From IMG/VR virus record IMGVR_UViG_3300050159_000048: a stretch of DNA of 64,000 nucleotides; one strand, written 5' to 3'. Positions 63,110-63,995 of this stretch are shown here, piece by piece (position 1 is the first letter of the stretch; every line of letters begins with the position of its first letter). A program made the translations under genes and the position numbers. The notes under the pieces are model-generated. The model saw nothing but the letters and a program-made list of their open reading frames with translations. It was not told the origin of the DNA and did no database searches. Source of the DNA: a virus. Taxonomy: Duplodnaviria; Caudoviricetes.

Positions 63110-63995
63110 AGTAAATCGAAACTACTTTCACAGACGACTGTGAAAGACGGTTTTCCGTGAAAGTAGTTTTGGGGCATGGCCCCGATAAGCGTGGCGACAC
63201 GTAAAAGCAGAATGTCCTACACATCTGCGCCAAAACCGAAAGGTGGTGGTCAATCCATGCAAGCCTAAACCTCTTCCGAAAGGAAGTAATCGCTGACCGC
63301 GGTTATAGGTAGGAAGTCAGTGTTGTGGAAAGAACGTTTGCTCAAGCGCCCGCAAGGGTAACGCAAGTAGACGGAAAGTAACGCGTGGTGGCGACTTCAC
63401 AACAAAACCAACTGACCAATACGTATGGTTAAAGGTAGTGTTATGGTCTGAGATTCGCACTCAAAGGCTGTAATGCAAACTGATAGGGCATCGGTGACTG
63501 AGATATGTTGTCAGTGTTCTTGAAAGTTGATTGAGTAGCCGGCAGGTGAAAGATATGAGGTGTGTTGTATTTCGTAGCCCAAAAGGTTATGAAGCAACTG
63601 GACGCACACATCTCGGTAGGTTATGCAGCGGGTGATTCCGCACATTTCAATAGGTATGAAATCTTTATCAAAAACGCAAAGTTGCGTCCGGTGCAACGTG
63701 AAAGTGGCTTAATCCTGCAGCTGAAAAGTAATGCAGGCAATCAAAGCTCGCAAGGCAGAGATTGTTGAAGAAGAATCGCACGTAGAGAGTTAGCGCTCTT
63801 GAACAGCCCGCAAGGTTGGCGGTAGAGGAAACTTCGAATAGCGTTGTACGACGAGCGAACCGCCACGCTCTAAATAAGGCAGTCATGTTAGTGTACATCC
63901 TTGAGGATGTGGATAAGAGTAGAACCGCTGGTGTAGCAACTAGTTGGATAATGACTCAAAAGTGCTAACATTAATGGTGTAATCTCAACCATACT
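63110..63995 (+). ncRNA. Large structured ncRNA, GOLLD/ROOL-like
   Basis: ~900 nt with no credible ORF; 13 bp stem 63119-63131/63157-63169; GNRA-capped stems at 63235, 63273, 63349; 3' hairpin ATGGT-GTAATCTCA-ACCAT; class assignment is inference. Confidence 0.7.

Follow-up and report, generated by a model that had tools for sequence, protein, structure and literature searches.

The window, by which we mean the whole 64,000-nucleotide stretch analysed here, corresponds to positions 56087-120086, read on the reverse strand, of a 183,069-bp IMG/VR virus record that is estimated to be 52% complete, and its last kilobase is occupied by a large structured RNA on the plus strand. Upstream of this RNA lie two genes resembling those of NAD salvage (60174-62202, plus strand), one for a fusion of cytidylyltransferase-like and NUDIX domains of the NMN adenylyltransferase type (phrog_395, E 3e-86) and the other for an AAA_28 kinase-like protein, together with a gene on the opposite strand for a DUF6782-like metallopeptidase, for which no syntenic relatives were found. 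A two-piece (permuted, beta-type) tmRNA with the tag peptide ANDAFYGEMRLAA lies at 37222-37564 on the minus strand, overlapped by Rfam tmRNA models at about 37245-37572. At the other end, a 6-nt spacer (ACUCAU, 63993-63998) separates the terminal hairpin of the RNA from a tRNA-Pro(UGG) that ARAGORN places at 63999-64074, with its first two bases inside the window, and a tRNA-Gly(GCC) follows beyond the window at 64092-64167, both on the plus strand.

The tRNA-Pro is the first of many. An initial annotation of this DNA had suggested that tRNAs might lie past position 64000, and about 51 more do: the whole record carries 52 tRNAs and the tmRNA by ARAGORN, the tRNAs being grouped in several arrays at window-equivalent positions 63999-119926 (126982-182909 on the reverse complement of the record). 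One of them, at window-equivalent 65848-65923, has a CUA anticodon (amber-suppressor type, labelled 'Pyl' by ARAGORN) and its own GTTGACA-N17-TATAAT box just upstream. The alternative genetic code that this tRNA brought to mind was rejected, since TAG ends 11 of the 162 open reading frames of at least 150 aa (table 11) and there is no sign of recoding.

What is the RNA? All 4227 Rfam families were searched for across the window, each at its curated gathering threshold, and three matches resulted, namely the two overlapping tmRNA models and GOLLD (RF02032), the last at 63557-63991 on the plus strand with 218.8 bits (E 1.4e-60) against a gathering score of 150 bits. The alignment runs from model position 1 to 416 of 416 and is not truncated, and the match is repeated identically on the whole record, where it is the single GOLLD. 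From the sequence alone, the initial annotation had read the region as a large ornate noncoding RNA of the GOLLD or ROOL class, or a new one, had preferred GOLLD on grounds of size, and had proposed a search with both models. The class and the preference are both borne out, as ROOL gives no match at threshold anywhere in the window, and the suggestion of something new finds no support. The further suspicion that the RNA extends at its 3' end beyond the window was wrong: the model is complete at 63991, which places the 3' end inside the window, and the tRNA-Pro begins at 63999. That the RNA belongs to the GOLLD family is, in our judgement, virtually certain.

The RF02032 model spans only the conserved 3' domain of GOLLD, which in full consists of a variable 5' domain followed by the conserved 3' domain (PMC12286853, PMC12990946). 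The locus has this layout, with a large structured part upstream of the 3' domain and a total of about 880 nt compared with 700-900 nt for GOLLD, and it has the setting too, a 183-kb virus record carrying 52 tRNAs, one of them a tRNA-Pro 6 nt downstream. About 63115-63992 (plus strand) is very probably a complete GOLLD RNA, some 880 nt long, of a tRNA-rich giant phage. It is an additional GOLLD with a less common 5' domain, and no new RNA class.

The 3' domain carries the hallmarks of the family, all aligned at high posterior probability in the cmscan alignment: the terminal GUAAUCUCA loop, the GUGGAUAAGAG junction, hairpins P21a and P21b, and a linker rich in A that ends in AAAGCAAAG. Two adjoining hairpins, at 63785-63800 (loop UUAGCG) and 63804-63818 (loop CGCAA), are putatively P21a and P21b by virtue of their position in the model (about 232-266). 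In the env-38 structure the L21a and L21b loops form kissing contacts between the half-cages (PMC12286853, PMC12990946), and the window's P21a loop keeps the GC/CG dinucleotide that covaries in this inter-half kissing loop (PMC12286853). The domain closes with the P27 terminal hairpin at 63974-63992 (AUGGU-GUAAUCUCA-ACCAU), whose L27 loop is highly conserved; the initial annotation had already picked it out as ATGGT-GTAATCTCA-ACCAT, along with the ACATCC-TTGA-GGATGT hairpin, which lies at 63895-63910.

Between the first part of the domain and the rest lies a variable linker of about 75 nt (63615-63690, the J13/15 region), which aligns to an unstructured stretch of the RF02032 model; its counterpart in env-38 is disordered and faces the interior of the cage (PMC12286853). 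Neither ARAGORN nor Rfam finds a tRNA in the window's linker. Four of the six close relatives described below (L187, L189, L190 and L192) have a tRNA at this position, as does Caulobacter phage phiCbK (a tRNA-Gly), and tRNAs within the linker were already known for other GOLLDs (PMC12286853, PMC12990946). A T-arm-like element in the window's linker (GCGGG-UGAUU-CCGC) was considered as a decayed tRNA and rejected, there being no convincing homology to the linker tRNAs of the relatives.

The upstream half has no such model to lean on. Rfam has no match in 62880-63556, and a permissive scan of 62880-63600 returned only the beginning of the GOLLD match plus one sRNA match at chance level. Folded alone, 63100-63560 has a minimum free energy z-score of -4.3, and none of 100 shuffles folds as well. 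The domain begins with a long P1-like hairpin at 63115-63173, in which the perfect 13-bp stem noticed initially (63119-63131 paired with 63157-63169) lengthens in the single-sequence fold to some 17 bp with a further inner helix, making up an almost uninterrupted duplex of about 25 bp. This hairpin is the least conserved part of the RNA, with a lineage-specific length and gaps in the alignments, and it is missing in one relative (L192).

The rest, 63173-63556, is a conserved core of about 17 helices, predicted by RNAalifold from an alignment of seven sequences (A2), with the conserved helices falling at 63179-63539. Within it are hairpins with GNRA caps (63189-63202 and 63273-63286), a long-range helix pairing 63263-63272 with 63426-63436, a multi-helix junction (63309-63422) that holds both the GGAAAGAAC motif (63327-63349) and a hairpin with a GUGGUG loop (63382-63393), and, on the 3' side, a pair of hairpins (63438-63476 and 63478-63528). 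The three tetraloop stems of the initial annotation are all present, ACC-GAAA-GGT at 63235-63244, CTTCC-GAAA-GGAAG at 63273-63286 and CCC-GCAA-GGG at 63349-63358.

Covariation, whose absence had been named at the outset as what would speak against such an RNA, is plentiful. The A2 alignment was made with MAFFT and includes three fairly close sequences (71-79%); its RNAalifold consensus has 95 pairs, 57 of them with compensatory double changes. Sliding the 3' partner by 1-3 columns leaves 11-17 such pairs, and 500 column shuffles give a mean of 25.3 (sd 3.5) and a maximum of 36, although these counts favour the predicted structure because the fold was derived from the same alignment. Subject to the same reservation, 93.5% of cells are paired in the observed alignment, compared with 33-43% after sliding and a mean of 76.5% (maximum 79.4%) in the shuffles. 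Given the E value of the Rfam match, the folding z-score of the 5' half and covariation well over the controls, the structure lies far beyond chance.

Could the region instead encode one or more small proteins, with RNA structure incidental? Open reading frames of 68 aa (plus strand) and 76 aa (minus strand) exist mechanically, the latter being the longest within 63100-64000, so that the initial impression of about 1 kb without a plausible gene holds. Neither frame covers a conserved block, substitutions among the relatives track base pairs and indels are frequent, and the conservation is accounted for by the Rfam structural match and the covariation. We give this reading next to no credence. 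The purine-rich strand bias reported for the region is likewise real, with a GC skew of +0.14 to +0.21 and an AT skew of +0.05 to +0.21 on the plus strand; both skews begin at 62950/63100 and are negative or about zero in the preceding gene.

How widespread is this 5' domain? A single-sequence nhmmer search recovered only L085, a viral contig matching both halves of the RNA, and an iterated profile was therefore needed. A 19-base motif common to the window and this contig (beginning GGAAAGAAC, 63327-63349) recovers 11 viral contigs, whereas by our estimate chance alone would give less than one. A full RF02032 match of 172-208 bits is present in six distinct relatives (L085, L187, L189, L190, L192 and L195), and in all six the 3' domain begins within a few nucleotides of the end of the 5' domain, at a fixed spacing; their 5' domains and that of the window are 46-79% identical in pairwise comparison. 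An initial, over-specific GOLLD motif had no matches in viral contigs, and a looser 3' motif gave 118 loci, of which a profile search confirmed only 15 as genuine GOLLDs. Of 50 distinct loci that have a full 3' domain preceded by no less than 500 nt of sequence, 38 fall into a single, dominant 5' sequence cluster unlike the window's, and the window's 5' type was found in one (L085) of 42 loci retrieved by 3' motifs alone. In all, it matches only about 7 viral contigs, and two other loci, L157 and that of phiCbK (L123), have just the last 5' helices in common with it. A CAG-GUGGUG-CUG hairpin is nonetheless common to both types, nested in the dominant cluster in a helix beside a GAAA-capped hairpin, and the two 5' domains are probably homologous.

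The rarity of the upstream sequence, together with an Rfam model that covers the 3' half only and leaves 62880-63556 without a match, could be taken to mean that GOLLD is 63557-63991 alone and that the upstream 440 nt or so are a structured RNA in their own right or else a long leader. One locus points in that direction: L188 (4494-4991, identical in L191 and L194) has the first portion of a 5' domain of the window's type, including GGAAAGAAC, and no GOLLD 3' domain by Rfam. Beyond this portion it diverges into a tRNA-Gly within a dense tRNA array, and it may be a GOLLD that was truncated or has recombined, or a 5' module that stands alone. Against a separate RNA stand the definition of GOLLD itself as a variable 5' domain joined to a conserved 3' domain (PMC12286853), the fixed abutment of the two domains in the six relatives, the hairpin common to the window's 5' domain and the dominant GOLLD cluster, and RNA-library contigs from three studies that cross the boundary at 63557. 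We regard a separate upstream RNA as very unlikely, and a single RNA spanning both domains as very likely.

These contigs come from environmental sequencing. Six runs recorded as RNA, all metatranscriptomes (five freshwater, one soil), contain part of the stretch, and four of the freshwater runs were aligned, contig positions being converted to window positions as 65492 minus the position in L001. The contigs of X12 (776 nt, 63180-63955, 10 mismatches), X14 (682 nt, 63285-63966, 5 mismatches) and X15 (712 nt, 63190-63901, 10 mismatches) stem from three separate studies and are the ones that cross the boundary; X19, from a fourth study, contributes two contigs without mismatches, of 285 nt (63600-63884) and 151 nt (63178-63328). 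Four variant letters in the contigs at 63273-63286 preserve the 5-bp stem through a register shift. The P1 hairpin and the flanking protein genes are uncovered in the four runs, which is not evidence either way, and no contig in them bridges GOLLD and the tRNA-Pro. The short pieces that match the tRNA-Pro have loose ends and derive from the tRNAs of other organisms. The contigs support expression and do not prove it, because strand, ends and abundance are not shown and libraries recorded as RNA can contain DNA. Among DNA runs, those in which the sequence occurs are metagenomes of leaf litter. The window's GOLLD is probably expressed.

The same libraries bear on whether this copy is still functional. 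It might be a decaying, non-functional remnant carried passively in a tRNA region, and two facts can be read that way, namely that the biological role of the GOLLD family is not established and that the window's linker lacks the tRNA found in four of six close relatives. The Rfam score is well over threshold along the complete model, however, every hallmark loop is intact, compensatory changes preserve pairing across the relatives, and near-identical sequence turns up in the RNA libraries of four studies, all of which makes a remnant extremely unlikely.

If this GOLLD is transcribed, where would transcription begin? The best candidate in a consensus scan is a σ70-like promoter at 62908-62937 on the plus strand (GTTGACT, a 17-nt spacer and a TG-extended TATAGT; 10/12 plus TG), with a predicted start near 62944, about 170 nt before the first GOLLD helix. 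A box of the same form, GTTGAC(T/A)-N17-TAnnnT, recurs on the same strand just before tRNA arrays of the record. A second GTTGACTTAA box at 63030-63061 (plus strand) repeats the first box exactly and has a weak -10 element, TACAGA, that fails the -10 criterion of the scan; in alignments it sits where L085 and L187 have TTGACA-N17-TATATT before the 5' domain. Both boxes are predictions, and consensus matches of this kind occur at the rate expected by chance. The leader of about 170 nt that the first box would define (62944-63110) contains an imperfect hairpin at about 62973-63011 with a U-rich run after it and, at 63070-63088, a hairpin of 6 bp (GCAAGC...GCTTGC), and has no Rfam match. In three of the studies, contig 5' ends cluster at 63178-63190, just 3' of the P1 hairpin, a weak hint that the 5' end lies after P1 and, as weakly, that the P1 duplex is a processing site for a double-strand-specific (RNase III type) enzyme.

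At the other end, no terminator was found on the plus strand inside or after the RNA, and none that convinces in the 1.5 kb downstream. With a gap of only 6 nt to the tRNA-Pro and no terminator, we infer that transcription reads through from GOLLD into the tRNA-Pro and tRNA-Gly. Similar junctions recur elsewhere: in 6 of 55 distinct GOLLD loci a tRNA on the same strand begins 12-15 nt after the GUAAUCUCA loop (tRNAs Leu, Leu, Gly, Asn, one with a UUA anticodon, and Met), and the window's junction measures 13 on the same scale. Six more of the 55 have a tRNA, in each case tRNA-Met, starting 21-28 nt after the loop. The recurrence of the 12-15 nt junction suggests that RNase P makes the 3' end by cutting at the tRNA, and for the window's GOLLD we put formation of the 3' end by RNase P at about an even chance. 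A 3' end defined by a tRNA is not general for the family, because in 41 of the 55 sampled loci the 600 nt that follow contain no tRNA. In two relatives (L190 and L192) it is the 5' domain that is directly preceded by a tRNA 3' end.

These observations allow us to propose how the locus might operate. Host RNA polymerase would start at the σ70-like promoter at 62908-62937, or at the weaker box at 63030, and would continue through GOLLD into the tRNA-Pro and tRNA-Gly; a cut by RNase P at the 5' end of the tRNA-Pro (63998/63999) would then free the 3' end of GOLLD. The RNA would fold into its two domains and self-assemble, free of protein, into a dihedral cage in which the 3' domains supply the ring and, through the P21a and P21b loops, the contacts from half to half, while the 5' domains form the caps and the linker of about 75 nt points into the interior. 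By analogy with its relatives of known structure, the window's GOLLD likely forms such a homo-oligomeric cage; env-38 assembles as a D7 14-mer and the S. agalactiae GOLLD as a 12-mer, stable at nanomolar RNA (PMC12286853, PMC12990946).

What such a cage would be for is a matter of guesswork. tRNA arrays accompany GOLLD consistently, and a tmRNA does so in several phages of Proteobacteria. In L085, Xanthomonas phage XacN1 and Caulobacter phage phiCbK the tmRNA gene is no more than about 1.5 kb away from GOLLD, and overall such a neighbour was seen at 8 of the 89 GOLLD loci retrieved. This company leads us to guess at a place in the phage's translation toolkit, and we suggest, tentatively, a translation- or tRNA-linked role in lytic growth such as holding or shielding RNA or ribosome-related cargo. 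Proposed contents of the cage include tRNAs, ribosome-related cargo, or the linker itself (PMC12286853). A two-part extension is equally speculative. The rare 5' domain may be a distinct cap architecture, perhaps with a subunit number or geometry other than that of the 12-mer and 14-mer, another cage size being conceivable because the 5' domain sets the stoichiometry in the solved GOLLDs. In this lineage GOLLD may, in addition, mature in the manner of a tRNA operon member, its 3' end made by RNase P at the 12-15 nt junction and its 5' end by processing of an upstream tRNA or cleavage of the P1 duplex, often with a tRNA in the linker. If true, this maturation and the linker tRNA would couple the cage directly to the phage's handling of tRNA.

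To our knowledge, GOLLD is among very few natural RNAs that form protein-free cages larger than a ribosome. The window's copy leaves the understanding of what GOLLD is unchanged, and adds a clean example in a giant phage carrying about 52 tRNAs and a tmRNA, with supportive evidence from environmental RNA libraries of several studies. Its alternative cap domain is backed by covariation and could be used to test how caps control cage size, and the precise, recurrent junction between GOLLD and tRNA renders the link to tRNA processing testable.

Among solved structures, env-38, an 833-nt RNA from a marine metagenome seen by cryo-EM as a 14-mer (PDB 9MEE; Kretsch et al. 2025, PMC12286853), resembles the window's RNA in belonging to the same Rfam family, in its two-domain layout (some 420-440 nt in the 5' half, some 415-435 nt in the 3' half), in having a variable linker after the first helix of the 3' domain, P21a, P21b and the GUAAUCUCA loop of L27, and in being phage-associated and adjoining tRNA genes. 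It differs in the sequence type of its 5' domain; the window's RNA has the long P1 hairpin and a linker of about 75 nt where env-38 has 42, and its tRNAs lie downstream, whereas env-38 has a tRNA-Met upstream. The S. agalactiae GOLLD (700 nt; Wang et al. 2025, as summarised in the review PMC12990946) forms a 12-mer (PDB 9L0R), its 3' domain alone a 10-mer (9LMF), and is described there as showing that stoichiometry and homogeneity are determined by the 5' domain. It is of the same family and has the same 3' domain core, but lacks P9, P11a-c and P21b, while the window's RNA keeps a P21b-like hairpin, and it resides in a Gram-positive prophage or chromosome rather than a giant phage. The 5' domains of both solved relatives differ from the window's.

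In Mycobacterium, GOLLD is described in PMC6582537, and by Morgado et al. 2020 as related in PMC12990946, as lying within large horizontally acquired tRNA arrays, with low expression and a linker that may contain a tRNA or pseudo-tRNA. The window's RNA is likewise set in a tRNA gene cluster, but the Mycobacterium copies are chromosomal (Actinobacteria), whereas this one lies in a giant phage of lytic type and has a linker without a tRNA. ROOL, at about 580 nt, forms RNA-only cages of 6 or 8 subunits and is phage-associated and found near tRNA genes. It is thus like GOLLD in operation, as a large phage RNA near tRNAs that builds an RNA-only cage, but it is unrelated in sequence and fold, and gives no threshold match in the window.

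The cultured giant phages that carry GOLLD (Stenotrophomonas CM1/RAS14, Xanthomonas XacN1, X1, BUDD and Caulobacter phiCbK-like phages) are tRNA-rich like the window's phage and infect Proteobacteria. Their 5' domains have no sequence-level match to the window's, whereas their 3' domains are 66-76% identical to it, and the tRNA-Gly in the phiCbK linker resembles the linker tRNAs of the window's relatives. The GOLLD 3' domains of CM1 (L120), XacN1 (L121), X1 (L122) and phiCbK (L123) are unannotated in GenBank, as are the GOLLD copies in the records of the other cultured carriers, and phiCbK-like records label the tRNA overlapping the GOLLD linker variously as Gly or Lys. As tractable carriers in culture, XacN1, CM1/RAS14, X1/BUDD and the phiCbK group are ready knock-out systems.
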